Shown here piece after piece: positions 2,701 to 64,000 of a stretch of 64,000 nt of DNA. The position numbers and the translations under genes are program-made. Under the pieces are notes generated by a model. It made no database searches and had not been told where the DNA came from. It saw only the letters and a list, made by a program, of their open reading frames with translations. Source of the DNA: a virus (lineage: Duplodnaviria; Heunggongvirae; Uroviricota; Caudoviricetes); IMG/VR virus record IMGVR_UViG_3300049919_000418, positions 86,928-150,927 of that record; one strand, 5' to 3'. Every line of letters begins with the position of its first letter. Within the stretch, counting starts at the first letter, position 1.

Positions 2701-2917
2701 AAAACGATAATAAACAAATAAATGTGGCGGCTCGCCCGACGGAAAATCTCAACAAACTTTGTAACTACGATATGCATATGAAAAACGTGATAATGAAAAA
2801 TGATGGCTCTGAAAATTCTCTGGCGAACGTCCAAGAGGACGCACCGCCGCCGTTGGAAAGCGATTGTGCCGCAACTGAGGAGCTTCACGGCGGTTGCTGT
2901 GTCTCGTCTTGTTCGCC
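2697..2917 (+). repeat. attC-like structured repeat copy B1 (leader 2697-2821 carrying an ~86-bp insertion; core 2822-2917 bounded by GGCGAAC...GTTCGCC)
   Basis: shares 5' ATGAAAAACGATAATAAACAAATAAATGTGGCGG and core ..AACGTCCAAGAGGACGCACCGCCGCCG..CGGCGGTTGCTGTGTCTCGTCTTGTT with copies at 57.5, 60.5, 62.5, 63.0 and 63.5 kb. Confidence 0.6.
2751..2829 (+). repeat. direct repeat unit 1 (about 79 bp), duplicated at 3325-3403
   Basis: AACAAACTTTGTAACTACGATATGCATATGAAAAACGTGATAATGAAAAATGATGGCTCTGAAAATTCTCTGGCGAACG recurs almost identically 574 bp downstream. Confidence 0.85.
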
Positions 2918-3078
2918 TATTGAGATTCTGAGTGATGTTGCCGAAGTCTCACGGGAAGAGGCCGAAAAAATGTTGGAAGCTGCCAAATCAGCGTTTGGCA
3001 ATCTGGATGAACCACCTCCCCTTGTCCTGCCATGAAAACAGGAACCAGTCAGGAAAATCCTCGGAATACTTCTCCTTC

Positions 3079-3351
3079 TTACGGAAGGGCGGCCCCGATC
3101 CGCTCCATCAACGCCGAGTAGTCAACACCCTTCCCCAACGTGAAAAGAATCAAAAGTGTGACATATATTAGATCCGTTGAGAAACCCGGCGTCTGTTGCC
3201 ATGACAAGGTGAACTTGTGTGGCTCTTCTGCTTCGGAATCCGGGTCAACATCCAGTAAAAGGCCATTCGACTCCAGACCTTTTGGGGTCTTGGTATAATG
3301 GCGACTCTCCTTCTTTAATCCCTCAACAAGCTTTGTAACTACGATATGCAT
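3079..3351 (-). CDS. hypothetical small protein (cassette-like ORF between repeat copies)
   Basis: 90-aa ORF; its ATG lies inside the duplicated 79-bp block (MHIVVTK...). Confidence 0.3.
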   Translation of the reverse strand: MHIVVTKLVEGLKKESRHYTKTPKGLESNGLLLDVDPDSEAEEPHKFTLSWQQTPGFSTDLIYVTLLILFTLGKGVDYSALMERIGAALP

Positions 3352-3403
3352 ATGAAAAACGTGATAATGAAAAATGATGGCTCTGAAAATTCTCTGGCGA
3401 ACG
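3325..3403 (+). repeat. direct repeat unit 2 (copy of 2751-2829), truncated at the AAC heptamer and followed by a degenerate GC-rich attC-like dyad (3404-3480)
   Basis: identical 79-bp block; sequence switches to GC-rich right after ..GGCGAACG; downstream CACCGGCC..GGCCGGTTG dyad with one extra T. Confidence 0.8.
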
Positions 3404-3475
3404 CAAGAGCGCTGGCACCGGCCACGCTGGAGCCTGAAATCACGAGCGACGTTATGGCCGGTTGACCAAACGACA

Positions 3476-3856
3476 ATGAAAGTAAACTACAACGCCGGAA
3501 CACTGGAAATCGACATGCACTCAATCCTTCAGGACGTGTCGCCAGAAAAGAAAATCGAAATGCTCGAAAGCCTCGCGTGTGATGACGCGATCATCAAGCA
3601 CGTCGCTGCCCAGATCATCGACCGATGGACGGAGAACTCATGCTCGGGAGGATCGAACTGCACGATCCCCGCCGATGCATCACGAGGCACGCCGCTGGAC
3701 GAAGCATGGCGACGGGTCGCGAAAGCATCGGGGGATGTAGCCAAGGATCAAATCGAGCGACTGGAACGCGGCCTTGCTCAACGTGATGAGCAGATCACGA
3801 AGCTGCATGAGCAAATCCGCGAGATGGTCGAACGTCGCAAGTCCATTCTCAGATGA
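3476..3856 (+). CDS. hypothetical protein (GC island)
   Basis: ATG at 3476 in frame of ORF-track 3374..3856. Confidence 0.45.
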   Translation: MKVNYNAGTLEIDMHSILQDVSPEKKIEMLESLACDDAIIKHVAAQIIDRWTENSCSGGSNCTIPADASRGTPLDEAWRRVAKASGDVAKDQIERLERGLAQRDEQITKLHEQIREMVERRKSILR

Positions 3857-3951
3857 CGACAAGGATCTGGCGCGGCGGGCGCTGGACTCCGAATAAACCA
3901 ACAAGGCAGCTCCCGCCGTTGCCAGCATCCACTTGTCAGCCTTTCTTAATT

Positions 3952-4200
3952 ATGACGACCGACGAACTGCAAAGCCAGCTCAACGCGACATGGTGCCGCG
4001 AACAATCCGCCGATGATGCCCACGATACAGTATGGGGCGAGCCGTTCGACGGCGAAACCGTGCGAATCTCTGACATCGCCGAAATCATCGACAAGCCGGA
4101 CTACACGAACCCCGAGGGAATGGTGCGCCGACTCCGCGAGGCTATTCAGGCTAACGACAAAAGTGCTGACACCGGCAGTGAAAGGAGCGCGAATGAGTGA
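3952..4200 (+). CDS. hypothetical acidic protein (GC island)
   Basis: ATG at 3952 in frame of ORF-track 3853..4200. Confidence 0.4.
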   Translation: MTTDELQSQLNATWCREQSADDAHDTVWGEPFDGETVRISDIAEIIDKPDYTNPEGMVRRLREAIQANDKSADTGSERSANE

Positions 4201-4477
4201 AACTGAAAAGCTAGTGCCGGTTGGCCAGCCACGACTTGTTCGGCCTTTTTCGTTCGAGTATCTCGGCGACTTCTCCGCAACTCCAGCGTGGGCTTCGCGC
4301 TCCATGCAGTGCGAAAGCTGCCGCGTATCATGGACGGGATGCTGGGATAACTTCCAGTGCCCGAAATGTGGCGAAGGTGATCTCCCGTCAGCCGACATGG
4401 AAGTGCTACTAGCTGGGTGCGCGGGGGTCATGGCTAAACTTGAAGCGTGTGGAAAATCTCTGCCGAGAACGAAATAG
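4193..4477 (+). CDS. Cys-rich zinc-ribbon-like protein (GC island)
   Basis: AAGGAG SD 6 nt upstream of ATG 4193; CESCRVSWTGCWDNFQCPKCGEG. Confidence 0.5.
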   Translation: MSETEKLVPVGQPRLVRPFSFEYLGDFSATPAWASRSMQCESCRVSWTGCWDNFQCPKCGEGDLPSADMEVLLAGCAGVMAKLEACGKSLPRTK

Positions 4478-4513
4478 CCCAGACGCGGGCGCGAAAAGGA
4501 AAGTAAATGACAC

Positions 4514-5116
4514 ATGGAAACTAACCACACAGTGGGCCACGTTGGATGGTCCCCAGACTATAAAAACACGCAGATGCCGCCCGTGACTGGAAAGCTAATT
4601 GCCCGTCGATCTGCGGCGGCTTGTTCGGCATCTTCATGGTTGCCCATTGAATCCGCTCCCCGTGACGGATCACGGATCTTGGTCGTGATGGGCGGAATTG
4701 TGACGCTGGCCCGCTGGAACGACCAAAAACATCACGCCAATCCGAAGCCTTACTGGTGCGCGGTGGATCAAATCTCAGTGACCCGAGATCGCGAAAATCA
4801 ACCGTCTGTTTGGATGCCTCTTCCATCTCTGCCGAACCCGATCAAGCTCATGGACGCCGACCCTAAATCTCCGCTTCAAGAAGGACGCTCCTCGGCGTTC
4901 CATGCAGCGTCTTGTTCTGTGTCTTTGGATCTGCGCTTGGCGGACTGCACGGAACCCGGATGGTATTTCTTCTATCCATCAGCTCAGAATAAATACGAAT
5001 GCGAAAAGTTCGTTAAAATCGACCAAGACGCTATTGATGACGGCTGGCTCCGATGCAGGAAATACGCAGGAACCTACATGGGGCCGATTACTCCACTATC
5101 TCTGCCGAACGCCTAG
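4514..5116 (+). CDS. DUF551-like repeat protein (GC island)
   Basis: two W..IE.AP.DG..ILV / W-rich units typical of phage DUF551 as recalled; 200-aa ORF. Confidence 0.35.
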   Translation: METNHTVGHVGWSPDYKNTQMPPVTGKLIARRSAAACSASSWLPIESAPRDGSRILVVMGGIVTLARWNDQKHHANPKPYWCAVDQISVTRDRENQPSVWMPLPSLPNPIKLMDADPKSPLQEGRSSAFHAASCSVSLDLRLADCTEPGWYFFYPSAQNKYECEKFVKIDQDAIDDGWLRCRKYAGTYMGPITPLSLPNA

Positions 5117-5154
5117 CTCTCCCGTGGAGGAATAATCACTAACGACTCAACAAA

Positions 5155-5493
5155 ATGAAAAACGAAAACGAAGCGAAAAACGTAGATAAACAGGTGACTT
5201 CCTCCCATCGTGAGGAGCGTCTTGTTCGGCTTCTTACGTGGCTCACAGGACGGAAACCTCGTAATACGAGGAAAGACTGGAAACAGGGGGATGCGATATT
5301 CCTTAAACGCTATCCTGCCGCGATCTGGGAATACGCACCAACGGGCGATTTCTTCTCGCTCAAAATTCATGTCGTAGCATCGCCAAATGTTATTCACCGG
5401 GGACTCCAGCGAGTCGCATTTGGCGTGCGCTACCGTCTTCTGCCGAACAGAGTGTTATCACAATCCGGAAGTGTTGATAACCGACGACCTTAA
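5155..5493 (+). CDS. hypothetical protein (GC island)
   Basis: 112-aa ORF. Confidence 0.35.
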   Translation: MKNENEAKNVDKQVTSSHREERLVRLLTWLTGRKPRNTRKDWKQGDAIFLKRYPAAIWEYAPTGDFFSLKIHVVASPNVIHRGLQRVAFGVRYRLLPNRVLSQSGSVDNRRP

Positions 5494-5970: not shown

Positions 5971-5975
5971 CATAT

Positions 5976-6516: not shown

Positions 6517-6714
6517 CATATGGAACATGTTCCAACAAATCGAGAGAAATCTCAGGTAGCAACAAAGCATCTTTATTGGTGTCGATGGTGCGACGGTGAT
6601 CTTGTTGGAAATCATGGGAAGTGTGGGCGTTGTAATAGACGGCAATATAGTAAAAAAAGAAAAATAAAATAAATAGGTCGGTGTCTCCAAACGGAATCTG
6701 TAAAATTCCCGTCT

Positions 6715-8644: not shown

Positions 8645-8649
8645 TTTTG

Positions 8650-13502: not shown

Positions 13503-14150
13503 ATGAATACTATTGAATCGCAAAAAGCACGCATGCCCTATCTAACTCAGGAAAACGCGGATGCCGCGCTCAAAGGATTGAAAAGTATTGCGGATCAATT
13601 AGACCTAACTGCAATTGCGAATGAAGTTCTTAACAACGAGGATTTTGTTGTTTGGACGGGCGCGGCGAAACCGGAAAGTCATCATTACGGAAAGTTTGGA
13701 TTATTACTTCATACTTATGAAGTTTATTTGAATGGAGTAATGATTATGGATGTTAATCAATCCCGTTATGGGTTTGATAAGCTTGATTTGCAAGAGTTTT
13801 TCCTTTCCGCGTTATTTCACGACTACGGAAAGATTTTTGACTACAAAAACACTAGCTATATAAGTGGTCATGGAGAGTATGCCACTTGGGTCGACCGATG
13901 GGGTTCAGCAGATCATAGGAGGAAAATTCATCATATTTCCCGCTCCGCTCTTTTCTTTTCGGAGGTTGCAAAGAAACGCGGTTTGCCGGAAGACTTGATA
14001 GATCGTGTGTTACATAATATTTTGTCCCATCACGGATGCCGCGCCTATGGCAGTCCGGTATCTCCAAACACGCGAATCGCTTGGATTTTGCACCTTAGCG
14101 ATATGGTTAGCGCACGCCTTTACGATTGCGATACTTTAGATAGGTTTTAA
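13503..14150 (+). CDS. HD-domain phosphohydrolase
   Basis: LLLHTYEV ... LFHDYGK (H..HD motif); ATG 13503 within ORF-track 13467..14150. Confidence 0.55.
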   Translation: MNTIESQKARMPYLTQENADAALKGLKSIADQLDLTAIANEVLNNEDFVVWTGAAKPESHHYGKFGLLLHTYEVYLNGVMIMDVNQSRYGFDKLDLQEFFLSALFHDYGKIFDYKNTSYISGHGEYATWVDRWGSADHRRKIHHISRSALFFSEVAKKRGLPEDLIDRVLHNILSHHGCRAYGSPVSPNTRIAWILHLSDMVSARLYDCDTLDRF

Positions 14151-15176
14151 TGGATAAATTCCCAATCTTTGTGTCGCCCTGATTTCGGGTTTTTCTTATT
14201 AATAAAACATTGATTCATAAATCCATTAGATAACCCATGTTTTCTGCAAAACTCCGAAAGGTTTGTCAGTTCAAAAGTTTCTCCGGTTGGTTTATGGTAA
14301 ATGGTTGAAATCCTGTCTTGGGTTTCGAATTCATTTAAATTTAATATAAATTTATTGTATTTTCTCTCAAGTCTTATTTCCGGGGTTGAATCTTTGTAAA
14401 TCCATTTTAAGAAATTTGAAGAGTCTTTTCCCAAATTTAGATAAAAAATATTTTCAGCGGGCTTAGCGAAGATTTTTTCTGTTGAAATACCTAATTTGGA
14501 TAGATAGTTTTTAATAAAACCCACACAAGATTGTGAGTTAATTAAATTAACTTTAAACCAAATTCTTTTTTTAACGGGAGAAACCTTAACGTAAATACTC
14601 CCGTCACCGTCGTAAAGACCCCTAACGAAATGAGAGTAATATTTTTCCTCAATACTTGGAAAGATAAAAACCTTTGACTTGTTTTCGTCAACACCGTGAT
14701 TTTTAATATACTGGCAAAACTCTTTGGAGTTTACTTGTATTTCACACGAATAATTCGTTTTTTTGGTCCTATCGTCAAAATTAGCCCTTTCTGCTACCGG
14801 GCTTCCAGAGTTGATAGCCCTTTGAAAATCCAAAAGAATTTTTTTTGTCTGTTGATTTAAGTTGAAAAGACAGCTTATATCCGCTTTTGTGAATACATCC
14901 GTCTGCCGCAATAAAACCAAGCCAATAAGCTTTTTCATTTGAATCGATATTTTTAAAATAATCAACATTAAGGGAGACTTTTCTGAGGGAGACGACAATT
15001 CCGTTATTTTTTAAAGTCTTCTTTATCCTCCCAACCGTAGTTTTAAACTTTTCTCTAGTTTCCGATAGTTTTCCGCACAGCAAATAATGCTTGACAACTT
15101 CCGATTCTTCATATATAGGTTTGCTCATACAGTATAAGTTGCACCACAATGGATCAAAAAAGAACAAATAATGCAA
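14147..15176 (-). pseudogene. LAGLIDADG homing endonuclease split into two overlapping frames (14781..15176 and 14147..14998)
   Basis: motif 1 WLGFIAADGCI in upstream ORF, motif 2 RGLYDGDGSIYV in downstream ORF; A8/T8 homopolymer at about 14838-14846 near the frame change. Confidence 0.55.
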
Positions 15177-35522: not shown

Positions 35523-36923
35523 ATGAATAATATTCTATTTCAAACAGATAGCTACAAAGTTTCCCAATGGAAAGTTTATCCAGAAAAAATGACCAAAATG
35601 TTTTCGTATCTCGAAAGCAGAGGGGGCGAAGCGGACGAAACGATGTTTTTTGGTCTTCAATATTTTATTAAAAAATACCTTACAGGTGTTCGCGTCACTC
35701 GTGAAGGAATAGACGAAATGGAAGAATTTTGTTTGGCTCACTTTGGGAGAAACGATGTTTTCAATAAACGCGGCTGGGAGTATATTTTGGAAAATCATGG
35801 CGGACGTTTGCCGGTTTCCATTAAATCTGTTCTTGAGGGAACGGTTGTGCCAACGAAAAACATTTTGGTATCTGTTGAAAACACAGATCCGAATTGCGCT
35901 TGGCTTGTCAACTATCTTGAAACCTTAATTTTGAAAATTTGGTATTCGATTTCCGTTGCAACTCGTTCGCACGAAATCAAAAAAAATATCGTAAGGCATT
36001 TAGAAAAAAGCGGCACGCCAGAAGCGGCACCCTTTAAAGTTGTGGATTTCGGATATCGTGGTTGCTCGTCTGAAGAGCAGGCTGGAATTGGCGGGCTAGC
36101 CCACTTGGTTTCTTTTTCCGCAACCGACACTATCGCGGCAATCGTTTTGGGGAAAGAGTTTTATGATAGTGGAGTGTGCGGATTTTCGATTCCCGCTACA
36201 GAACATTCTGTAATGGTTGCAAAAGGTAAAGGTGGCGAACTTGAGCAATGCAAACGATTTCTTGAACAGTATCCCGATGGATTGGTTGCTTGCGTATCCG
36301 ATACTTACGATATTTTCAATTGCTGCGAAAATATTTGGGGCGGAGAGTTAAAAGATATTGTTGAAAACCGAAACGGAACTTTAGTTATTCGACCAGACAG
36401 CGGAGACTTTTTTGAAGTTGTTCCAAGTTTGTTGAATATTCTTTCAAATAAATTTGAATTTTATGTTAATGCAAAGGGCTACCGGGTTCTTAATGATAAG
36501 GTGAGGTTAATTCAGGGTGATGGAATGAACCCTCGCACTATGGACCGGCTTTATGAAAAAATCATTGAGTTGGGGTGGAGCGCAGACAACCTAACTGTTG
36601 GTTCTGGGGGCGGATTATTGATTGAAGGGCTTACGAGAGACACGCATAAATTCGCCATTAAAGCATCTTGGGCTGAAATTGATGGGAAATCGGTTGAGCT
36701 ATTTAAGTCCCCGATTACTGATTCTGGAAAATCTTCCAAGGCGGGCCGACTAAAGCTCGTCAAAGAAATTCGAAAGGACGGGGCTTCTAAATATAAAACA
36801 TTTACAAGCAGCCATCCTTTGTTCCACGATTTCAAAGATGAACTTGTTGAAGTTTTCCGCGATGGTAAACTTTTAATTGATCAAACTTTTGCTGAAATTC
36901 GGGCGCGGGCCGATCAATTTTAA
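35523..36923 (+). CDS. nicotinamide phosphoribosyltransferase (NAMPT/NadV-like)
   Basis: 466-aa ORF, length and overall similarity recalled for phage NadV (KVP40-type); not verifiable without search. Confidence 0.5.
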   Translation: MNNILFQTDSYKVSQWKVYPEKMTKMFSYLESRGGEADETMFFGLQYFIKKYLTGVRVTREGIDEMEEFCLAHFGRNDVFNKRGWEYILENHGGRLPVSIKSVLEGTVVPTKNILVSVENTDPNCAWLVNYLETLILKIWYSISVATRSHEIKKNIVRHLEKSGTPEAAPFKVVDFGYRGCSSEEQAGIGGLAHLVSFSATDTIAAIVLGKEFYDSGVCGFSIPATEHSVMVAKGKGGELEQCKRFLEQYPDGLVACVSDTYDIFNCCENIWGGELKDIVENRNGTLVIRPDSGDFFEVVPSLLNILSNKFEFYVNAKGYRVLNDKVRLIQGDGMNPRTMDRLYEKIIELGWSADNLTVGSGGGLLIEGLTRDTHKFAIKASWAEIDGKSVELFKSPITDSGKSSKAGRLKLVKEIRKDGASKYKTFTSSHPLFHDFKDELVEVFRDGKLLIDQTFAEIRARADQF

Positions 36924-54865: not shown

Positions 54866-56138
54866 TGTTTACTGAAAACTTTCACGATTACGATTTCTCA
54901 GGACGGCACGGACTTGTTGTTAATATAAATTATGGACATAAGGAGGGCGCGGAAAAAATAGCGCAAAGCATGAAGGATGGGGGTTTTTGCGAAAACGATG
55001 TTGAATTTATTTTCAACCCTAAACCCGATATTTGGATCTACGTTTGGCCCGATGGTGTAACAGTAGATATGCCTAACATTATTGGGGTTGCTTCAAGATT
55101 CCCCCAATATTGGCGCGTCGAAACCCTTCACAATTACATTCGAAATGAATCCAAACAATAAAAAGTTAGTTAGCCCGAAACCTTCATGCCTCAACGCTTA
55201 TCAAATCACCTGCGAGAATTCGCTTGACGAGTTTTTAACGAATGAGGTGAGAGAGTTCGATTCAATTCATAAAACGGGAAAGTTTGTAAAAGTTAGCTTT
55301 GGCGGCAAGAAACTTTTTAGTTTTGAATTTGGGGAATGGTTAGTTGTCTTTTCTGACAACAATATTAAAAATTACAACAACGATGAACTCTTGGAAAACT
55401 TTACTTTTGTGGTTTAATCTCAGGAAACTGATCAGGTCGAGGGCGAGATACCTTCGTCTTATTTCAGGTATGGAGAATACACATTTTAAATCAAAATGCG
55501 ATCTTCCGGAATTGTTGGAAGCAACCATTAATACGCGCAAAACCTACCAACAAAATGCGATTGTGCTTGACGGACAGGGGTTTCACAAAATTTCAGATCA
55601 ATTTACGATTCTAAAGGAAGTCACACGAGACATTGAAGCAATTATAAGAACTTGGACAGAGGGGGACGAAACAGATGGCGACCGAAACATTACTTGAAAT
55701 CTGCCTTTTTGGCGGCGCGGCAGACGGCGCGACAGCCGCAATTGAAAATTGCAAAGAAAGAGTGAGGATTGGAACAAATCAATATTCCGACAGTTTTTTT
55801 GTTGACAAGGATGGGCGGGCAATCTATTACGCAAGCAAAGGACCGGGAAGGCTTACTCCGGGATATATTAAAAAGCTATTTAAAGAAGATTAAATCATGA
55901 TTCGCTGGAAAAACAAAAACAAGGAATTCAGGAAAGCCTTGGACGAGGAAGAGATTGAGGAAGCGTTGATGCCATTTCGCGCCCAACTTCAAAGACTCGC
56001 CGAGGAAAACAAGGGGGTTAAGGGCTACAGCGTTAAAGTTGCGTATAGGGAAACGCGGGCAGTTCTTTTGGAGGAACTGAGGATTAATTTTGCTTTACTG
56101 GATGCGGCGGCGTACGAAGAGAATATTTTGATTAAAAA

Positions 56139-56280
56139 ATGAAAACTAATAAAATTGGAGCGGCAGCCCCTCTTGAATCTCTGCCGAACGTCAAATGTCC
56201 GCCCACGGGCGCGAACAAAAAGGAGATTGAACCGCAACAGGAAAGCTTATCGCCCGTTGGTACGCGACAGCTTGTTGTGC
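56139..56280 (+). repeat. attC-like repeat A1 (leader 56139-56182; 98-bp core 56183-56280, GCCGAAC...GTTGTGC)
   Basis: core identical in length and near-identical in sequence to A2/A4/A5. Confidence 0.65.
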
Positions 56281-56409
56281 CTTCTTCATTTTTGTGGGAA
56301 AGGATGCTTAAGGAACAGCCATGGGCGGAAGCTGAAGCAAAGGTAATAAATGCGGACGATGAGGTTCTAAAATATATCCTTGATAACGGAAGGGGCTTCC
56401 CGTCCGAAA

Positions 56410-56862
56410 TCACACAGATTCAGTTGTGTCGGAACATTCAGAAGTTGGTAAATCAAATGGAAGACCCACGGATGAGTAAAAATCCAGAGCATCTTGAGAA
56501 CAAGGCCAGTGCTCTAAAAGAGCTTCGCGAAAGTATGGACCATCCATCCTATATTGTGAATCCCCCACGGGAACCTTAAGCTTGGAAATCGTAAAATGGT
56601 AAATATTCACGCTATCTTCGCCCTTGTCTGTGTTTGGATTAGGTTCGTGCGCCAGAAAATCAATCCCGACAATCGCCAAATTCTTATTGAGAACCTTTGG
56701 AGTCACGCAACAACCGCTGGCGTAAACGGCAAACAAATCATCCTTGCGATGGACACGGGGAAGATTATCCCAACGGGCAGGAGGGATATCGTGAATCTGC
56801 CAATCCTGCAAACCCCTCAATGAACTAAAAAGATCTTCTGTTAAATAATAGGACTTGGACAT
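56410..56862 (-). CDS. hypothetical protein (array cassette ORF)
   Basis: 150-aa ORF with ATG; start abuts repeat A2. Confidence 0.45.
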   Translation of the reverse strand: MSKSYYLTEDLFSSLRGLQDWQIHDIPPARWDNLPRVHRKDDLFAVYASGCCVTPKVLNKNLAIVGIDFLAHEPNPNTDKGEDSVNIYHFTISKLKVPVGDSQYRMDGPYFREALLEHWPCSQDALDFYSSVGLPFDLPTSECSDTTESV

Positions 56863-56865
56863 AAT

Positions 56866-57016
56866 ATGAAAACTAATAAATTAAAATTAAACGCCGCCGA
56901 AAAGGAATCTTCGTTTCTGCACAACGTCAAATGTCCGCCCACGGGCGCGATTGAAAAAGTGGTTGAATCGAAACAGGAAAGCTTATCGCCCGTTGGTGCG
57001 CGACAGCTTGTTGTGC
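56866..57016 (+). repeat. attC-like repeat A2 (leader 56866-56918; 98-bp core 56919-57016, GCACAAC...GTTGTGC)
   Basis: fills the entire gap between two minus-strand ORFs. Confidence 0.7.
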
Positions 57017-57058
57017 CTTCTTCATTTTCTTCTGTGGGTGGAACTCCATACACAATGC

Positions 57059-57535
57059 TCATGGGGATACAGGGAGCGCAAAAACAAGGTCGGTTATTCG
57101 AATCGCCTCTGGACCCTCTAAGGGGAAAGAATCTTTCACTGTTTGGCGTCCCTCCCCATTGCCTTCTTCGCTATACTTCGACAAAAGGTGAACCTGTCCC
57201 TCCCGAACATCATCTACAATCCATCCGTGACATGATGAACCATCACGGTTCAAACAATACAAACCAACTATTCGTCCCGACTTCAGTTCTTCTTGAAGAC
57301 GGTCGAGAAATGATTGGCCTGTGGATTGATCGTGGATCTGGAAATGTAACCCCTCAATATCTTGGTCACGAAAATGCGTTAAGCCCACGTTCTCGTCCCG
57401 ATACTTATGCTGAAGATCGTAGAAACCCATCGGCACCTTCTCATATGCCTTCAGAATCATCTCAATCAACGACGGCGAGCATGAAGCAAGATACTTTTGG
57501 TGGTGCTGGTCAACAACTTGAGAGATTGGAATCAT
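57059..57535 (-). CDS. hypothetical protein (array cassette ORF)
   Basis: ORF-track 57059..57574 trimmed to internal ATG (MIPISQ). Confidence 0.4.
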   Translation of the reverse strand: MIPISQVVDQHHQKYLASCSPSLIEMILKAYEKVPMGFYDLQHKYRDENVGLTHFRDQDIEGLHFQIHDQSTGQSFLDRLQEELKSGRIVGLYCLNRDGSSCHGWIVDDVREGQVHLLSKYSEEGNGEGRQTVKDSFPLEGPEAIRITDLVFALPVSP

Positions 57536-57647
57536 TGGAGTCTTCGTTTCTGCACAACGTCCCAGAGCACGCACCGCCGCCCCTGAGTGGCGAGGGCGTT
57601 GAAACTGAACCGCTTATGGGCGGTTGTTGTGTCTCGCCTTGTTCGGC
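57531..57647 (+). repeat. attC-like repeat B2 (partial leader; 96-bp core 57552-57647, GCACAAC...GTTCGGC)
   Basis: B-type middle GAGCACGCACCGCCGCC..GGCGGTTGTTGTGTCTCG. Confidence 0.65.
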
Positions 57648-57748
57648 TTCTTGTCTTCGACTGGAGATTGTTGATTCAAAAGACGGCGCAGCGATAACAT
57701 GGGTAGAGATAAAAGTAGGGGCGATAAGCCGTGAAACGGTGAGAATGG

Positions 57749-58096
57749 TTAAGGCGTTCGAAATTCTACTTCGTGATCTCCAATATAAGGAGGCAAAGTC
57801 CCGCCCCAATAGCTCGGTATATCTTCTTCAGGTTGTGTGGCCAGATGGATCGCGAAGTCCTTCACAATCTCTTGCAGAGTGGACAGCGGAACTTGAAGGC
57901 GAGCTTCGCTAAAACTCAATGTCTCTGTCGCTAATACGTTGTCGAAAATATCCACGATGATGTTCCTCGCTTGTAAATACTCGCGGAACTTCCAAACGAG
58001 GGCTTCTGGACCAATACAGGAAACGCCATCTACGTTTTCTTTGGGTTCCAGCTCTTCTTTGATTGCTTTGGCTTCTGTTATTTCTCGTTGTGTCAT
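57749..58096 (-). CDS. hypothetical protein (array cassette ORF)
   Basis: 115-aa ORF with ATG. Confidence 0.45.
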   Translation of the reverse strand: MTQREITEAKAIKEELEPKENVDGVSCIGPEALVWKFREYLQARNIIVDIFDNVLATETLSFSEARLQVPLSTLQEIVKDFAIHLATQPEEDIPSYWGGTLPPYIGDHEVEFRTP

Positions 58097-58109
58097 AAAT
58101 AAAAATAAT

Positions 58110-58245
58110 TAAATGAATAGTAATAAAATAAACGGCGCGGCAGCGCCTCTTAATATTCTGCCGAACGCTGAGCCCATCCGCGCCGGGGTGGACTCCGCTT
58201 AAAACAATACGGCTTATCGGCGTCGGATGCGGCGTCTTGTTCTGG
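58110..58245 (+). repeat. divergent attC-like repeat (leader ATGAATAGTAATAAAATAAACGGCGCGGCAGCGCC; 86-bp core 58160-58245, GCCGAAC...GTTCTGG)
   Basis: same terminal heptamer pair and GGCTTATCGG centre; dyad ATCCGCGCC/GGCGTCGGATGCGG. Confidence 0.55.
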
Positions 58246-58318
58246 GTCTTTTTGAGCTCGGAAAAGAAAGTGAAAATAAATTGAAATAGTGCTTGCGGAA
58301 AATCAAACCGTGAACTAA

Positions 58319-58365
58319 GGTCTTCTCAGTTGCAGAACGAAGCGCAACTGAACCAACCAAACAAA
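58319..58365 (+). promoter_or_regulatory. conserved island leader GGTCTTCTCAGTTGCAGAACGAAGCGCAAC + spacer + ATG (copy 2)
   Basis: near-identical to 48758..48805. Confidence 0.6.
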
Positions 58366-58821
58366 ATGCAAACCATCAAAATCCTCGCCATCGTCAAAAC
58401 CGGAACCACCGAGTCTCTGATGCGCGTCCCTCAAGTCACCGTCCGCGAGGATGGAACTCTCTGGGCCAACAACAACACGATGCCGCTCACCAATAGCAGC
58501 GGCACGCTGAACAAGGACAGCCTCCTGCCACTGATGACCGCCAAGGCATGGGACAAGATCCCCGCCGATAACTTCCTCCGCCTCGGGGTCAATCCGGGAG
58601 AAAAAGAAGCCATGGACGACAAAGACGTGGACGCCCGCCGCATCGACAGCCGGACACCGGAAGAAAAAGCAGCACACGCCGCAGCAGCGGACCGCGCCAA
58701 GAAAGCGCGTCAATACGACCTGATCCACAATGAGGGCGGAGAAGGCTACAACCCATACCGCGATCAAGCTGAAATGGTCGATAACACCCCATGGATGAAG
58801 GGCGACGACCAAGCCGACTGA
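58366..58821 (+). CDS. hypothetical protein (GC island 3)
   Basis: ATG 58366 in frame of ORF-track 58330..58821; GC-rich. Confidence 0.45.
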   Translation: MQTIKILAIVKTGTTESLMRVPQVTVREDGTLWANNNTMPLTNSSGTLNKDSLLPLMTAKAWDKIPADNFLRLGVNPGEKEAMDDKDVDARRIDSRTPEEKAAHAAAADRAKKARQYDLIHNEGGEGYNPYRDQAEMVDNTPWMKGDDQAD

Positions 58822-58850
58822 AACTCAAAACCCCAACAGAAATCACGAAA

Positions 58851-59075
58851 ATGAAAACGATAAATCTCAAGCACAGCCTCGCCAGTGGAGGAAATCTCAT
58901 GCCACAGCAAGCAGGCGCAAAGCCCGGCTATCGCAACGGCTGCATGCCCGCATGGCTCGACAACGTGGACGCATCGCAGGCCGGGAAGAATCTCTACCGC
59001 GCCGAAAACCTCACAGAAAACCAGCTCGCCACCGTACCAGACTGGTATCGCGAAAAATACTGCCAACCCTCATGA
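58851..59075 (+). CDS. hypothetical protein (GC island 3)
   Basis: ATG 58851 in frame of ORF-track 58791..59075. Confidence 0.4.
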   Translation: MKTINLKHSLASGGNLMPQQAGAKPGYRNGCMPAWLDNVDASQAGKNLYRAENLTENQLATVPDWYREKYCQPS

Positions 59076-59260
59076 CTCCAAAACCAACCAGAGGCGGAAC
59101 AAGAAAAGGCGCGGGGCGCAAGCCCCGCGATACTCCCCGCGAAGCAATCACCGTGCGGATCGAGCCGCAGGACGCGGACAAGCTGCGGGATCTCTGTAAT
59201 GCACGGGAGATGTCTCAGGCCGATTGGATCACCGAAAAAATCAGAAAGTCCCGCCAATGA
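59072..59260 (+). CDS. small Arg-rich ribbon-helix-helix-like DNA-binding protein (GC island 3)
   Basis: ATGA overlap; TVRIEPQDADKLRDLCNAREMSQADWITEKI resembles RHH (CopG/Arc) fold. Confidence 0.4.
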   Translation: MTPKPTRGGTRKGAGRKPRDTPREAITVRIEPQDADKLRDLCNAREMSQADWITEKIRKSRQ

Positions 59261-59261
59261 T

Positions 59262-59365
59262 TTCTCCCCAGAACGTTAAATGTCCGCCCACGGGCGCGAA
59301 CAAAAAGGAGGTTGAACCGCAACAGGAAAGCTTATCGCCCGTTGGCGCGTGACGCCTTGTTAGCC
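59262..59365 (+). repeat. attC-like repeat A3 (no conserved leader; 98-bp core 59268-59365, CCAGAAC...GTTAGCC)
   Basis: starts 2 nt after the RHH stop; GC island occupies the position of the usual leader. Confidence 0.65.
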
Positions 59366-59578
59366 TTCTTGAATTTCTCTTATGTATTTTTCGGTTTCAG
59401 ACTCTTCCCGGTTGGGATTTTCTTTGCATTCTTTTAATTGGTGTCTCCTAACGTCATTCTCAGATTCAGTCATCGCGCCCAAATCATCTTTTGATGTCGA
59501 TGGGTGCTGTGATAAATAACCGCAAAACTCACAAACCGCATACGCAATCTTCCCATCGGAACTATAATAGGTCTTCAT
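59360..59578 (-). CDS. hypothetical protein (array cassette ORF)
   Basis: 72-aa ORF with ATG. Confidence 0.4.
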   Translation of the reverse strand: MKTYYSSDGKIAYAVCEFCGYLSQHPSTSKDDLGAMTESENDVRRHQLKECKENPNREESETEKYIREIQEG

Positions 59579-59796
59579 AAATAAAAATAAGTAATAAAGA
59601 AAATGTATCCACTAAATAAAATCGGCCCTTACGCGGCGTTGCCGGGGAAAACCATAAAAGATGTATCGCACGAAAACGCAAAATACGGAGGGTTCCAACT
59701 TTTCTTTACGGACGGTTCGGACATTCTTTTCGATTTTCCTGACAGGGGAAGCGGGCCAACGTTGACAGCTTATCCCGGAGAGTCTTTTAATTTCTT

Positions 59797-59924
59797 GGCT
59801 AACGTCAAAGAGCACGCAACCCTATCAGCGGGAGCGAGCGTCGATCACGGGGTTGAGGTTGGAACTACGCAGGAGCATGTGAACAGGGCGGCTGATAGGG
59901 GTTGCGTGTCTCGTCTTGTTGGTT
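59797..59924 (+). repeat. attC-like repeat B3 (128-bp core, GGCTAAC...GTTGGTT, longer variable centre)
   Basis: shares AACGTCAAAGAGCACGCAA 5' block and GTGTCTCGTCTTGTT 3' block. Confidence 0.55.
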
Positions 59925-59977
59925 GCTCTTCATTTTCTTTGAACGGTTTTGTGCCGACTGGACACCCGCCGATGTAT

Positions 59978-60421
59978 TCACCTGACCAAGCAGAGGCCAT
60001 GGCACTTCTTGTCCACCCAGAATTGGTTACTAAATGAAGGGAGAAAACCTGAACTTCCATCTTGAAAAGAAGTCCACAACTGAAACGAATCAGGCGTAAT
60101 CGAATGCAAAACGCTTGCATGATTCAGCTCGCTTGAGTCGCCTTCATTGAGTGAAACATGAGACAAAACGATAACCTTGGAATCCGAGTCAAACTTGCCC
60201 CGAACCACTTCAAAATCCCACTCGTCAGAAACGCCTAAAAATCCAAGACCGCTTAAAATAATCCCAAGTTTATCGTCTTTGGGCATTCCGAAATACTCCT
60301 CGCGAAAATAAACACTGTAACTGGCGCAAAAATCTTCAATCGAGGGCAAGCCGCAAATCTCCATGATGGCTCGCGACATACATCCATACTTCTTAAATTC
60401 TTCTTTTTGATATTCGATCAT
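59978..60421 (-). CDS. hypothetical protein (array cassette ORF)
   Basis: ORF-track 59978..60442 trimmed to ATG (MIEYQKEEF). Confidence 0.45.
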   Translation of the reverse strand: MIEYQKEEFKKYGCMSRAIMEICGLPSIEDFCASYSVYFREEYFGMPKDDKLGIILSGLGFLGVSDEWDFEVVRGKFDSDSKVIVLSHVSLNEGDSSELNHASVLHSITPDSFQLWTSFQDGSSGFLPSFSNQFWVDKKCHGLCLVR

Positions 60422-60563
60422 ATTATGAAAAACAATACGCAAATTAACGACAGACTCTTAAATTCTTCAACCAACGTCAAAGAGCACGCACCGCCGCAGA
60501 AGAAAAGCGACGGGAGCGCAACTGAGGAGCTAAACGGCGGTTGCTGTGTCTCGTCTTGTTGTG
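60407..60563 (+). repeat. attC-like repeat B4 (variant leader; 96-bp core 60468-60563, AACCAAC...GTTGTGC)
   Basis: B-type middle. Confidence 0.65.
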
Positions 60564-60868
60564 CCTCTTCATTTGGGGTAGAGGACGCTAAAAAACTATT
60601 CAACGATCCTTTAGTGGGAGCAATCAAAACAGAGGACTACGCGACATCATTACGCCTTGAGGATTATGTCAACCTCGATGGTATAGGTGACGCCTTTGTC
60701 TGGTCTTGCGCGCTCCTTGAGATACTCGATACCGAGAATCAAAGTGGCAGCAGTCTCACTCAGGGGGCCAGTGTTGGTGACTCGCCAAGTTCCTCCGGTA
60801 ATCGGATCAATCGTGGTAAGTTCTGATTCTGAAATGCGGGTAAATTCCATTGTGTTGTTTATGTATTG

Positions 60869-61435
60869 TTATTGTGCGAGCGACTTCATCGCGGAAATGA
60901 CCTTCTTGGCTTTACCTGCCGCCTCTCCAAAATCAATCGCGGCAAGCTGGCCACCGCGAATATTCTGCTTCCCACTTCCATGAACGGCAAACCAAAACGG
61001 CTCACGCTCCTCAATAGAAATGGAACAGGACGCCCCGCTCCACGAACCCCATGTCATTCCCGTCTCAAAAGCGACGAATCCATGGCCTATATCGGTAACA
61101 GTGTTGCCGTTCTGACGGATAGCCTTCTGCGCAAGACTCAACATCTGTTCCATCGTGGCGTTGAACTTCTTGTATTCCCTATTATACACGGGACGCTGTG
61201 GGATCATCTGCGCGAAAATCTCCTCATGAGACTCAAAAATCACCCATTCGGCAGTCGCGTCGTCCTTGGAGCAGGCGTGCAAAATGTGGACCTGTAACTG
61301 AGGCGCGTTGTCCTTGATGGCCTTGACATCCAACAGGGTCTTGGTGTGCGGGGAGGGATTGCCGCCAACCGCTACAAACCAATCGTCCTCAACCCCGTTC
61401 GCGTATTGCCAGCTTAGAATCTGATCGTAAGTCAT
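60869..61435 (-). CDS. hypothetical protein (array cassette ORF)
   Basis: 188-aa ORF with ATG; protein-like composition. Confidence 0.5.
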   Translation of the reverse strand: MTYDQILSWQYANGVEDDWFVAVGGNPSPHTKTLLDVKAIKDNAPQLQVHILHACSKDDATAEWVIFESHEEIFAQMIPQRPVYNREYKKFNATMEQMLSLAQKAIRQNGNTVTDIGHGFVAFETGMTWGSWSGASCSISIEEREPFWFAVHGSGKQNIRGGQLAAIDFGEAAGKAKKVISAMKSLAQ

Positions 61436-61449
61436 AAACCGTAATTAAA

Positions 61450-61597
61450 ATGAAAGACAAAAAATTAGTATTAAACGTCGAAGAGGAATCTTCATTTCTG
61501 CACAACGTTAAATGTCCGCCCACGGGCGCGACTGAAAAAGCTAAAGAACAGCAACAGGAAAGCTTATCGCCCGTTGGTGCGCGACGCCTTGTTCGGC
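61450..61597 (+). repeat. attC-like repeat A4 (leader 61450-61499; 98-bp core 61500-61597, GCACAAC...GTTCGGC)
   Basis: A-type middle TGTCCGCCCACGGGCGCGA..TCGCCCGTTGGTGCGCGAC. Confidence 0.7.
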
Positions 61598-61624
61598 TTT
61601 CTTCATATTCATTCAAGCTTAGAG

Positions 61625-61972
61625 TCAAATGGCGTTTGGAACGGGCATTGAAGTCTCTTCCAAGAATCTCAAAACTGCCTTATATCCGAAATCTTGACCT
61701 GCCCCGATCAGGCGTAGGGTCGCTTCTTCCTCATATGATACCTCGAACAGATTGGGAAATCCAACCCGAGCAGCTAAATACGTTATCCCCATGCCCACGG
61801 GACAAGGCGATGTTGATACGATCCGAGCGCCATTATTATAGTCTTCTAGCACTATGGCCTCGCAATGCAAAACGGGGACTGTCTGTCCCGAAGACAAAAG
61901 AAGAATCTGTTTCTTTTGCAAATTTTGTAACTCACGGGCTTCAGACGGGGAGATTTCTATCAACTTACTCAT
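61625..61972 (-). CDS. hypothetical protein (array cassette ORF)
   Basis: ORF-track 61625..62002 trimmed to ATG (MSKLIEISP). Confidence 0.45.
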   Translation of the reverse strand: MSKLIEISPSEARELQNLQKKQILLLSSGQTVPVLHCEAIVLEDYNNGARIVSTSPCPVGMGITYLAARVGFPNLFEVSYEEEATLRLIGAGQDFGYKAVLRFLEETSMPVPNAI

Positions 61973-61986
61973 GGGTGGATTGTTTT

Positions 61987-62084
61987 CTGCCGAACGTCCC
62001 ATGTCCGCCCACGGGCGCGACTGAGAAGGAGGTTGAAAAGTGACAGCGGAGCTTATGGCCCGTTGGCGCGTGACGCCTTGTTAG
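61987..62084 (+). repeat. attC-like repeat A5 (no leader; 98-bp core GCCGAAC...GTTAGCC)
   Basis: A-type middle, most similar to A3. Confidence 0.65.
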
Positions 62085-62429
62085 CCTCTTTCTTTATTTT
62101 TTTCTGTGGCATCGTATCGCCTGAGTCTCCGTGTGGGGACTTGGGCTTTCGGGTGCAATGAAATATAAAGTAAATAAATCAAATATAAAAAATGGTCTTC
62201 GTCGCTGCGAAATGTCGGCCATTATAGCAAAGCTTGCGCTGAGTGACGAAGATCTTCGGCTCGCTTGTCGTTCTCTTTCGCGCTCGCTAAAAGCTGCGAC
62301 TTCTGAGGCTCGGGAATATTCTAAGCGATCAATTCAAGTATCGCTGCCTGCTTCGTGGTCAGGGATGCTACACATTCAATCAGCGGGCGGATAATATCTT
62401 TTATTTCTTTTGTTATCATGGAATTTGCA

Positions 62430-62577
62430 ATTATGAAAAGTGACGAAATGGTTAAAAATGTTGAAGTCGGGAAATTTTCTTTGGCTAACGTCCAAGAGCA
62501 CACGCCGCCGCCGTTGGAAAGCCAAGAAACCGCAACTGAGCCGTTAGGGGCGGTTGCTGTGTCTCGACTTGTTGGCC
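62430..62577 (+). repeat. attC-like repeat B5 (variant leader; 95-bp core 62483-62577, GGCTAAC...GTTGGCC)
   Basis: B-type middle. Confidence 0.65.
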
Positions 62578-62820
62578 TTATTTTTCTTCTTTTGGGTTGT
62601 GCAGTCTATTGTGGTGAAAACCAGACTTGTGAATCGCCCCGACAATCGCTTGCTTTGCAGTATCGTGCGGAAAACTTTCGTCCTTGTATTCCCCTTCTGG
62701 ACAGGATCGGCACTCAATGTAGCCAGTCCACGAACCTTCAACAAACTTGGCGTGAACGTAATAGGAGATACCGTCTCGCTCAATCAACTGCCAATCGTCT
62801 CCTTGTGTAATTATATTCAT
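62578..62820 (-). CDS. hypothetical protein (array cassette ORF)
   Basis: 80-aa ORF with ATG; stop abuts repeat B5. Confidence 0.45.
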   Translation of the reverse strand: MNIITQGDDWQLIERDGISYYVHAKFVEGSWTGYIECRSCPEGEYKDESFPHDTAKQAIVGAIHKSGFHHNRLHNPKEEK

Positions 62821-62999
62821 TATTATTTTATGTTAAAAGAATCATTAAATCAGTTCGAGAACATCCTTCGCGGGAAAACCATTAAAAGCGTGAGCGCCGA
62901 ATACCATCGGCTTAGGCTAACTTGCGAGGACGGTGAGGAAATCATCGTAAAAAGTGAATTGGCGAAAGATGCGCCTCTTGGTTGTTGTCTTTTTGTTCT

Positions 63000-63094
63000 G
63001 GCCAACGTCCAAGTGCATACACCGCCGCAAGCGGAAAGAGACAGAAGCGCAACTAAGCCGTTATCGGCGGTTGCTGTGTCTCGTCTTGTTGTGC
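63000..63094 (+). repeat. attC-like repeat B6 (95-bp core GGCCAAC...GTTGTGC)
   Basis: B-type middle. Confidence 0.6.
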
Positions 63095-63220
63095 CATCTT
63101 CATCTTCCGATTATGTTAATCTGGGCGGCGGATTCCGGGACGACAAAAATAAGGTGTTCTACGAAAAGATAGGAGATAAAACGTATGAAATCCCATTCGA
63201 ACACATGGCCGTCTTGGTTA

Positions 63221-63493
63221 CTAGAATTGTAACTCAGGGTGTAATGACGGGCTTGCTCTCACTCGAATATCTTGAGACTCTTCTAAAAGGATATGAGGGG
63301 GTAAGGGGAAAAAAGATGATGTATTCGACTGTGCCCTTGTGCGCCGCGCCCTCCAGTCAACAATTAACGCCTTCGCCCGTTCAAAATCAATAGGTTTGTC
63401 ACTGTAAACAGAAAACAATATATTGCTAGTTGGGTCCGATACGGCAAAATAATGCTCGGGTAATTCAGCGGGAATATATTCAATAGTATTCAT
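63221..63493 (-). CDS. hypothetical protein (array cassette ORF)
   Basis: ATG (MNTIEYIP) is directly back-to-back with the ATGAAAAGTAAT leader of B7 (CATATG junction). Confidence 0.4.
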   Translation of the reverse strand: MNTIEYIPAELPEHYFAVSDPTSNILFSVYSDKPIDFERAKALIVDWRARRTRAQSNTSSFFPLPPHILLEESQDIRVRASPSLHPELQF

Positions 63494-63639
63494 ATGAAAA
63501 GTAATAATAAACAAATAAATGTCGCGGCGGAATCTTCAATTCTGCACAACGTCAAAGAGCACGCACCGCCGCAAATGGAAAGCCAAGAAACCGTGACTGA
63601 GGAGCTTCACGGCGGTTGTCGTGTCTCGTCTTGTTGTGC
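63494..63639 (+). repeat. attC-like repeat B7 (leader 63494-63543; 96-bp core 63544-63639, GCACAAC...GTTGTGC)
   Basis: B-type middle; best-conserved B copy. Confidence 0.7.
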
Positions 63640-63749
63640 TTCTTCCATTTCTCAGTGGATTGATTACGATGGACGACCAGTAATTCAGGTGAATGGTAAA
63701 ATGCAAATTGATTATCCAGTTCAGAAGCAAGCCCCGATTACCCTTTGGC

Positions 63750-63949
63750 TTATCTCTCTTCTAACGAAACGAGTCGATAGGATTCGCCGTCACAGTCATC
63801 TAAGACCCACTCCACTTCCGTCACGCGAGCGTCAACGTGCCTCTGCCCATTATAATGTTTAATCAAGTCGCCAACCCTGAAATTCAGTTCGGTTTCAATC
63901 GAATTCGGAATCGGTGCATCAGTATATGTAGTTTGGAATTTAGTAATCA
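63750..63949 (-). CDS. hypothetical protein (array cassette ORF)
   Basis: ATG start MITKFQTT; ORF-track 63750..63965 uses an upstream TTG. Confidence 0.4.
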
Positions 63950-63952
63950 TAA

Positions 63953-64000
63953 ATATGGAAAACAATAAATTAAAATTAAATGCCGCCGAAGAGAAATCTT
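63953..64000 (+). repeat. start of a further repeat leader (ATGGAAAACAATAAATTAAAATTAAATGCCGCCGAAGAGAAATCTT), truncated by window end
   Basis: matches A2/A4-type leader. Confidence 0.6.

Follow-up and report, generated by a model that had tools for sequence, protein, structure and literature searches.

Probable integron gene cassettes and their attC sites in the genome of a T4-like phage

Results

A family of hairpin repeats

The window analysed here, by which we mean the whole stretch of 64,000 nucleotides at positions 86,928 to 150,927 of the IMG/VR virus record IMGVR_UViG_3300049919_000418, carries a family of repeated elements that we identify as integron attC sites, with small open reading frames (ORFs) lying between them. 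Twelve copies of ~95–130 nt (c1–c12) lie on the plus strand at 56.18–63.64 kb (56183–63639) and two more (c13 and c14) were found past the end of the window in overlapping contigs; the main array of 14 copies spans 56129 to ~64,596 in window-equivalent coordinates. A preliminary description of this DNA had given the extent of the repeat as 56866–63650, which is too short, both for the main array and in view of a second array at 2818–5239. Its observation that the repeat is conserved as nucleotide sequence proved genuine: the core GTCTCGNCTTGTT has seven occurrences where 0.2 would be expected by chance, repeat finding returned families of 99–135 nt with 3–6 copies apiece, and a covariance model, built on the hairpin structure from a hand-checked alignment of the twelve copies c1–c12, recovered these copies in cmsearch with E-values of 2e-9 to 3e-27.

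One structure accommodates all twelve copies. Reading along the plus strand, a 7-nt box ending in AAC is followed by 6 unpaired nucleotides, by a stem of 15 bp that encloses a loop of ~40–75 nt and variable sequence, and by 5 unpaired nucleotides and a 7-nt box starting with GTT, the distance from box to box being 86–128 nt. The unpaired spacer consists of GTCAAA (6 nt) facing GTCTT (5 nt), and on the 3′ arm of the stem single bases bulge out at three places, after 3, 6 and 9 pairs. Most copies fall into two classes, class A (TGTCCGCCCACGGGCG...CGCCCGTTGGTGCGCGACA) and class B (GAGCACGCACCGCCG...CGGCGGTTGCTGTGTCTC), which differ at most stem positions with every pair retained, and the common structure also accommodates the outliers c4 and c6.

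The class A sites, given here with their 5′ and 3′ boxes and cmsearch scores, are c1 (56183..56280; GCCGAAC and GTTGTGC; 103.8 bits), with its pairing set out in a table, c2 (56919..57016; GCACAAC and GTTGTGC; 115.9 bits), c5 (59268..59365; CCAGAAC and GTTAGCC; 97.3 bits), c8 (61500..61597; GCACAAC and GTTCGGC; 112.2 bits) and c9 (61989..62086; GCCGAAC and GTTAGCC; 99.1 bits). Class B comprises c3 (57552..57647; GCACAAC and GTTCGGC; 97.2 bits), c7 (60469..60564; AACCAAC and GTTGTGC; 99.7 bits), c10 (62483..62577; GGCTAAC and GTTGGCC; 95.7 bits), c11 (63000..63094; GGCCAAC and GTTGTGC; 98.7 bits) and c12 (63544..63639; GCACAAC and GTTGTGC; 111.3 bits). The divergent c4 (58160..58245; GCCGAAC and GTTCTGG) scored 46.4 bits and the long-loop c6 (59797..59924; GGCTAAC and GTTGGTT) 65.5 bits; all twelve are on the plus strand. 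DNA folds were computed for c2 and c4, that of c2 giving an R box, a spacer, a bulged stem and a loop.

An attC site is made up of the same parts, an R box, a central spacer that stays unpaired, an L box bearing extrahelical bases and a terminal structure of variable form (PMC5027507), and it measures from tens of nt to ~140 nt in all. The bottom strand of attC has RYYYAAC at its 5′ end and its extrahelical bases near L″ (Nivina et al. 2016, PMC5027507), which in attCoxa2 are G16, A20 and T24 (PMC5027507). In the present element the bulges are at positions 16, 20 and 24 counted from the GTTRRRY end, and the plus strand is therefore the attC bottom strand; T, and not G, prevails among the bulged bases. 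The AAC and GTT triplets are present in all twelve copies, and the outer four box positions are sometimes off the strict R/Y consensus, as in GCACAAC. Among 99 distinct copies from phage and bacteria the inner three box pairs are conserved in 97–98 of 98, the L stem is 94.5% paired, changes on both sides occur in all 15 of its pairs, and the covariation score is 0.519, whereas shuffles give 0.147 and controls with slid partners no more than 0.116. The repeats are thus integron attC sites, with the bottom strand on the plus strand of the window.

Complementary boxes delimit cassette units

The 3′ box of one copy is the perfect complement of the 5′ box of the next in 12 of 13 pairs of neighbours (GTTGTGC/GCACAAC, GTTCGGC/GCCGAAC, GTTCTGG/CCAGAAC, GTTAGCC/GGCTAAC, GTTGGTT/AACCAAC and GTTGGCC/GGCCAAC), whereas the two boxes within one hairpin are complementary in only 2 of 14, the outer four positions often being mismatched. 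None of 200,000 permutations attained this pattern. Bacterial arrays of the same element behave in the same way, with perfect neighbour boxes in 35 of 55 cases compared with 5% of random pairs, and the sites of integron arrays have been described as chimeric attC/attC sites (PMC4889954).

The pattern is the signature of an integrase crossover inside the box, and IntI-type recombination as the origin of each unit is strongly supported. The attC would fold as a single strand, with an R box (RYYYAAC with GTTRRRY), a 6/5-nt spacer, a 15-bp L stem, three extrahelical bases and a variable loop; IntI would cut the AAC triplet where A meets C, with strand exchange following, and the two half-boxes around an ORF would be parts of one circularisable cassette. 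The half-boxes flanking one ORF match, and the boxes of one hairpin usually do not, because the mobile unit would run TTRRRY–leader–ORF(s)–hairpin–G.

Bacterial relatives of the element

A 22-nt pattern taken from the 3′ arm matched at least 120 genome loci, and among the matches listed nearly all are metagenome-assembled genomes of Verrucomicrobiota (Luteolibacter, Akkermansiaceae, Haloferula, Prosthecobacter and Rubritalea). Across those loci the covariance model detects over 330 copies, which are arrayed in the same orientation and number as many as 13 per 8 kb. A homologue of the integron integrase IntI adjoins the array in nine loci, all from Verrucomicrobiota (BLASTP); the ORFs are IntI1-like, with 42–49% identity in eight loci and 37% in the ninth (L039), where the ORF is cut by the contig end, and the five of the nine that were tested scored 331–390 bits on the TIGR02249 ‘integron integrase’ model (cut-off 265). 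In all nine the integrase is on the 3′ side of the model, which is the side predicted for attI/intI from the bulge-bearing strand.

On sequence grounds the phage attCs belong to the chromosomal-integron family of Verrucomicrobiota (Luteolibacter, Akkermansiaceae, Haloferula and Prosthecobacter), and such hosts are most likely the source of the phage cassettes. Some of the phage copies are closer to bacterial attCs than to one another: c6 is 91% identical to bacterial attCs (L071, L038 and L112) compared with 62% to other phage copies, the copy a1 shows 93% compared with 81%, and c9 88% compared with 83%. Repeated acquisition is therefore favoured over duplication within the phage. The 22-nt pattern also matches three IMG/VR contigs, and 1–3 copies of the same attC family are present in each of L007, L008 and L009, which are IMG/VR contigs classified as viral. 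A search of IMG/VR for phage-borne IntI brought up a full-length IntI-like gene in a single contig, which is 6 kb long and unrelated.

Cassette genes on the minus strand

The preliminary description had preferred the compact minus-strand ORFs of the main array as gene models over the long plus-strand ORFs that overlap them, and both sets are present where it had placed them. Most cassette genes are indeed on the minus strand, an assignment that leaves out the intervals 62086–62483 and 63094–63544, and the evidence is of three kinds, from the bacterial cassettes, from homologues of two of the genes and from a codon-position test. In the bacterial arrays the longest ORF runs opposite to the model strand in 41 of 46 cassettes and covers a median of 88% of the interval.

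The best characterized gene, 57059..57535 (−, 158 aa), has six full-length homologues with 52–62% identity and a further one, at 65%, that lies between two attCs in contig L135; the homologue in L136 is followed by an attC, and those in L135 and L136 are both opposite to the model strand. Differences from three homologues at minus-strand codon positions 1, 2 and 3 number 37/39/58, 38/37/48 and 50/38/67, respectively. The plus frame is disfavoured here because substitutions are in excess at the third position of the minus codons, a site equivalent to the second position in the plus frame. The structure model of the protein, which is confident (mean predicted local distance difference test score, pLDDT, of 86.5), gives weak and consistent fold matches to the C39 domain of PCAT1, to a CdiA-CT toxin and to IdeS and, together with an invariant His (H103) and a Cys in the family consensus (SCSPS), suggests that it is probably of the papain-like cysteine peptidase fold.

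The two-gene cassette at 60650..61435 (−), both genes of which are called in the public annotation of the Joint Genome Institute (JGI), encodes proteins of 188 aa (60869..61435) and 66 aa (60650..60850). For the former, 153 homologous representative clusters were found, 92 of them at E ≤ 1e-10. The 188-aa protein has two domains, the C-terminal ~110 aa recurring in more than 100 clusters with varied N-termini; some of these relatives are fused to GYF_2 or zinc-ribbon domains, and the part corresponds to no Pfam family.

The other minus-strand cassette ORFs, taken from the ORF list, are 56410..56862 (150 aa; a gene in public JGI contigs, with no Pfam or PHROG match), 57749..58096 (115 aa), 59978..60421 (147 aa) and 61625..62002 (125 aa), the last three also being JGI gene calls, and two that diverge from plus-strand ORFs, the Cys-containing 59360..59578 (72 aa; the plus ORF starts at 59603) and 62578..62820 (80 aa; the plus ORF starts at 62830). 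Searches of the ORFs of both strands against Pfam and PHROGs gave weak matches only, and a tblastn search against cultured phages gave none. Codon usage, which the preliminary description had proposed as a check, did not serve: log-odds derived from the phage’s own genes failed to separate the strands, and the plus-strand ORF 56139..56579 scored 0.26 per codon, equal to true genes.

Plus-strand ORFs that run through the repeats

The seven long plus-strand ORFs (56866..57912, 59603..60037, 60407..60826, 61450..62043, 62355..62810, 62554..63393 and 63494..63862) had been taken as a group to be of low complexity and probably artefacts, on the argument that the conserved 3′ block of the repeat is read in different frames and that the element is therefore a feature of the nucleic acid and not a protein motif. 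The latter view is upheld by a larger alignment: among 180 phage and bacterial copies, consistent frame conservation is absent, the lengths fall 92/52/36 into the three classes modulo 3 and each frame is open in 46% of them at most. Likewise, reading through the repeat is what yields the Cys-rich and Lys-rich ‘peptides’ as by-products. In detail, all plus-strand ORFs enter the 5′ block in a single phase, and their exit phase is set by the length of the copy (95, 98 or 128 nt as against 96 nt). Relative to the CTTGTT block they are in phase 0 in c1, c2, c6, c8, c10 and c11 and in phase 1 (CC) in c3, c7 and c12, a third phase occurring only where ORF 62554 begins within c10; in c5 and c9 the entering ORF ends inside the copy. 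The 3′ block is thus translated in differing frames, as had been said, but the readings AVAVSRLV and QLVVPSSF, which had been counted as separate frames, are the same phase on two sequence classes. In addition, ORF 63494..63862 reads GGCRVSSCCASS rather than GGCCVSSCCASS, the second ‘GGCCVSS’ being GGCRVSS.

The 348-aa ORF 56866..57912 is, on several comparisons, an antisense artefact. Two independent cassette boundaries fall inside it, its frame is interrupted by two stops in the homologue from L134, and its database matches, apart from a 97% variant, are short and partial with at most 62% coverage; in L135, the sole contig fetched among those matches, the protein concerned (P0011) is an antisense call running through an attC. 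Most of the long plus-strand ORFs through the repeats are reading artefacts of this kind, arising because the attCs and the antisense strands of the cassette genes happen to be without stop codons. In the public JGI annotation (L001, L143 and L145), five of the seven ORFs that run through the repeats are listed as genes (133, 144, 130, 187 and 122 aa), and the minus-strand ORFs 62578..62820, 63221..63514 and 63750..63965 are lacking.

The rejection of the whole group was nevertheless too sweeping, since at least two short plus-strand genes and one plus-strand cassette look real. ORFs 59603..60037 and 62554..63393 start with or contain a plus-strand ORF of ~55–65 aa belonging to a family with the motif ‘L.GKTI..V...DG’, which we call GKTI. 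The first member, 59603..59796 (+), enters attC c6, the rest of 59603..60037 being read-through, and the second, 62830..62999 (+), enters attC c11. An alignment of three paralogues, with 28–39% identity in their N-termini, suggests that these short ORFs are probably real; a search for homologues of the family found none outside. The cassettes c5–c6, c10–c11 and c13–c14 (the last at 170–646 of contig L002) each hold a divergent pair, consisting of a GKTI ORF on the plus strand and a small Cys-containing ORF (72, 80 and 55 aa) on the minus strand.

The cassette at 58254–59264 has its genes on the plus strand (58330..59260), reversed with respect to its neighbours, and a GC content of ~51%. The genes encode proteins of 163 aa (58330..58821) and 94 aa (58791..59075) and a 62-aa protein resembling ribbon–helix–helix (RHH) proteins (59072..59260); the domain matches, to RepB-RCR_reg and RHH_1, are weak. 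This plus-strand cassette looks real.

AT-rich leaders

The conserved peptide ‘MK.N.K’, with its start ATGAAA, is the reverse complement of an AT-rich segment of ~55 nt, which forms the 5′ end of the cassette, with the crossover box on one side and the minus-strand ATG on the other. The segment occurs in two types, recognized by alignment. Type 1, at 56863..56918 (−) with further copies at 61444–61499, 63488–63543 and 63950–64000, belongs to four cassettes and goes with the box GCACAAC. Type 2 goes with GCCGAAC and is found in one cassette, at 58106–58159 (−), where it precedes the minus-strand ORF 57749..58096, and as a remnant with no ORF behind it at the low end of the array (56129..56182, −; repeat family D10). 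The preliminary description had the ATGAAA leader always present; this was an overstatement, for of the window’s twelve copies just four have it, c2, c8 and c12 with type 1 and c1 with type 2, while c4 has ATGAAT and c13 ATGGAA.

In an nhmmer search of ~0.8 Mb of bacterial arrays both types of leader were absent; they were found in the phage only. Plausibly the leader is a phage-specific promoter or untranslated region, and it may drive the expression of the cassettes, which would suggest how promoterless cassettes could work outside an integron. Scans of the region gave 12 promoter-like sites, compared with 8.4 ± 2.8 in shuffled sequences, and 17 terminator-like sites, compared with 10.1 ± 2.9; we found no enrichment of either.

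The second array

The second array (2818..5239, +) lies directly upstream of a tRNA cluster and has six sites, at 2818–2926, 3847–3950, 4145–4253, 4458–4638, 4827–4929 and 5100–5239, with cmsearch scores of 30–94 bits. It is more degenerate than the main array, notably in its boxes, one site having GAC/GTC in place of AAC/GTT, and its most protein-like ORFs (3374..3856, ~3950–4200 and 4514–4826) are all on the plus strand. Its GC content is 53.7%, compared with 47.6% for the main array and 40.8% for the backbone.

The tRNA cluster itself (5900–8775) comprises six genes according to Rfam and four according to ARAGORN, those at 5976–6047 and 6445–6516 being predicted by Rfam only.

Phage context and assembly

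The replicon is a T4-like phage, to judge from its predicted proteins. Almost all ORFs of the window are on the plus strand. An rIIA protein, distant from those of T4-like phages (24% identity), is encoded ahead of a protein matching Phage_T4_rIIB in Pfam and one of the YqeY kind; the window also has genes for RNA ligase and ATP-dependent DNA ligase, tRNAs and a clear gene for nicotinamide phosphoribosyltransferase (NAMPT; 35523–36923, +), the last being typical of large T4-like phages. An ORF at 14147–14998 (−) has a weak LAGLIDADG_3 match and possibly encodes a homing endonuclease.

The main array begins ~2.5 kb past rIIB, in an accessory region. At its low end the leader remnant overlaps the stop codon of a plus-strand gene (55897..56142) and at its high end the last attC, c14 (~64,596; ~1835 in contig L144), directly abuts an AT-rich phage intergenic region. 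Exact-pattern scans of viral contigs and metagenome contigs for the continuation of the window gave no match, and a 71-aa ORF was absent from the records; contig L144 provides 6.4 kb of sequence past its end, in which plus-strand genes resume after the array, encoding a 97-aa ORF, a 360-aa RuvB_N/AAA protein and a SprT-like protein. The 5.8 kb past the array contain neither a further attC nor IntI.

Sixteen metagenome contigs from about ten samples are colinear with the region and 99.9–100% identical across both junctions, of which that from backbone to array is spanned by L001, L130 and L131 and that from array to backbone by L144. An apparent rearrangement between L003 and L005 was ruled out, BLAST showing them to be colinear and the difference to lie only in gene calling.

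Discussion

Integron cassettes in a phage accessory region

The main array lies in the accessory region downstream of rIIA and rIIB, and we consider it highly probable (about 0.9) that it consists of integron gene cassettes with their attC sites and without a nearby integrase, that is, a cluster of attC sites that has no integron-integrase (CALIN), in a T4-like phage, the second array making a further CALIN. IntegronFinder defines a CALIN as at least two attCs on one strand without intI nearby (4 kb) (Cury et al. 2016, PMC4889954); here 14 sites are all on the plus strand, the gaps between them are at most 1.0 kb and no intI was found in the window or in the 5.8 kb beyond the array. A complete integron would have intI, attI and the promoter Pc beside the array, and the absence of an integrase from these stretches is the reason for calling the array a CALIN and not a complete integron. 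The cassettes would have passed into the phage from Verrucomicrobiota hosts, and they could have been inserted or reshuffled during infection by the IntI of the host, working in trans on the phage DNA.

Several observations weigh against this interpretation. A tblastn search found no IntI-like sequence in the 64-kb window and, because no integrase was found, the recombination of the phage sites, like any present-day mobility and any action of host IntI on the array, is something that we infer. No gain, loss or reordering of cassettes was seen among the 16 colinear contigs, and the array ORFs, compared by tblastn with ~0.8 Mb of bacterial integron loci, had no cassette in common with them. The second array and three to four cassettes of the main array have their best ORFs on the plus strand, which is the minority orientation in bacteria. 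Finally, neither end of the main array is a clean G|TT junction, and illegitimate or homologous entry from a host array is therefore as likely as insertion by IntI at a secondary site.

A bolder version of the proposal holds that the phage has a working and adapted cassette system, in which Verrucomicrobiota cassettes, joined to a phage promoter or leader, are expressed without Pc and reshuffled in infection by an integrase, either the host IntI or one encoded at another place in the ~166-kb genome. We regard this as rather unlikely. If it were true, a virulent phage would keep accessory genes, possibly for anti-defence, in reserve much as an integron does, and a route for two-way traffic of cassettes between phage and host would exist.

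Alternative explanations

The leaders bring to mind the promoter early stem-loop elements (PeSLs) of T4-type phages, and one might suppose that each unit is a PeSL-like module with a hairpin terminator and a leader promoter, shuffled by homologous recombination of the phage with no present role for an integrase. The array lies beside rIIB in a T4-like accessory region, the kind of place in which PeSLs act (PMC2839356, PMC4122927); the ~55-nt AT-rich leader is common to six cassettes and was found in the phage only, both type 2 leaders have a small hairpin followed by a run of T on the minus strand, and leader and attC together make a repeat of ~170 nt with 80–89% identity, which is sufficient for homologous exchange. 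However, the hairpins have the exact geometry and bulge positions of attC, the same element flanks cassettes beside bona fide IntI genes in bacteria, and the consensus scans for promoters and terminators do not rise above shuffles. Such a module fits the maintenance of the array in the phage and fails on the origin and form of the repeat, and we think it improbable as the whole explanation. A structured RNA transcribed from the plus strand, whether a cis-regulator or a small RNA, would also have a conserved hairpin backed by covariation, and the plus strand of the array is probably transcribed, nearly all phage genes being on that strand. A hairpin of single-stranded DNA predicts covariation equally well, though, and the complementarity of the outer boxes, which an RNA would not need, tracks the cassette boundaries and not the hairpin. 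With the element tied to IntI in bacteria, and with no match in the region in Rfam scans at the gathering threshold and at E ≤ 1 (Rfam being without an attC family), we judge an RNA element very unlikely.

Still less probable is a reading of the conserved blocks as coding for real peptides, for example leader peptides, precursors of ribosomally synthesized and post-translationally modified peptides or targeting sequences, and of the long plus-strand ORFs as genes. The single phase of entry into the 5′ block, the five public gene calls and the indels among leader copies, which are multiples of three, could be read in this way, but reading of the 3′ block shifts among two or three phases, the ORF ends within two of the copies and the lengths of the 180 copies are unconstrained modulo 3, with no frame generally open; the 348-aa ORF, moreover, spans two cassettes, has its excess of substitutions at second positions and two stops in L134, and there was no Pfam or PHROG match. 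An assembly chimera of phage DNA with a bacterial integron might be suspected, since repeats break assemblies, many contigs end within the array and the GC content of the array is unlike that of the backbone. Against this, both junctions are spanned at 99.9–100% identity by contigs from different samples, two separate arrays lie in the window, each between phage genes, and the leaders are phage-specific, so that a chimera seems hardly credible. The reading as integron cassettes, by comparison, explains a puzzling repeat family, corrects the public JGI gene models and links an uncultured T4-like phage, through its attC family, to Verrucomicrobiota hosts.

Comparison with known systems

The array resembles the sedentary chromosomal integrons, such as the Vibrio superintegron (PMC4889954), in its long runs of sites in the same orientation, its similar, chimeric attCs and its ORFs of 0.4–1 kb, and also in that the cassettes are mostly ORFans and that some are reversed with expression signals of their own. 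It differs from them in lying on a phage replicon without intI, attI or Pc and in the conserved AT-rich 5′ leader, bacterial cassettes being normally promoterless. With T4-type PeSLs (Arbiol et al. 2010, PMC2839356; Comeau et al. 2014, PMC4122927) it shares short repeats that flank small accessory ORFs in a plastic region, and which could mediate modular shuffling and in principle release mini-circles. PeSLs, however, are small composites of a terminator stem-loop and a strong, sigma-70-like early promoter that recombine by homology, whereas the element described here is an attC of ~100 nt with integrase-type boxes that is common to bacterial integrons.

The closest parallel is with the CALINs of other phages, of which 17 were found in 10,705 phage genomes, virulent phages included (Qi et al. 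2023, PMC9892861), and the kind of array is thus already known. IntI1 recombined five of six phage attCs tested in that study (PMC9892861). In common with the published examples (PMC9892861), the present array has attCs and cassettes without a neighbouring intI, and its cassettes are mostly of unknown function; unlike them, its sites form a single coherent attC family, traceable to the integrons of Verrucomicrobiota. What is new here is the presence of 20 sites in two arrays (14 + 6, the sizes of the published phage CALINs (PMC9892861) not having been compared) in one T4-like phage, the host phylum, an attC family that can be traced, the setting in a T4-like genome, cassette boundaries with their signature intact and the phage-specific leader on several cassettes, all of it known, in contrast with the published phage CALINs (PMC9892861), from sequence alone. 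The array is therefore best seen as an unusually clean and large example of cassettes in a phage of virulent type, which supports the idea of an exchange of cassettes between phages and chromosomal integrons.

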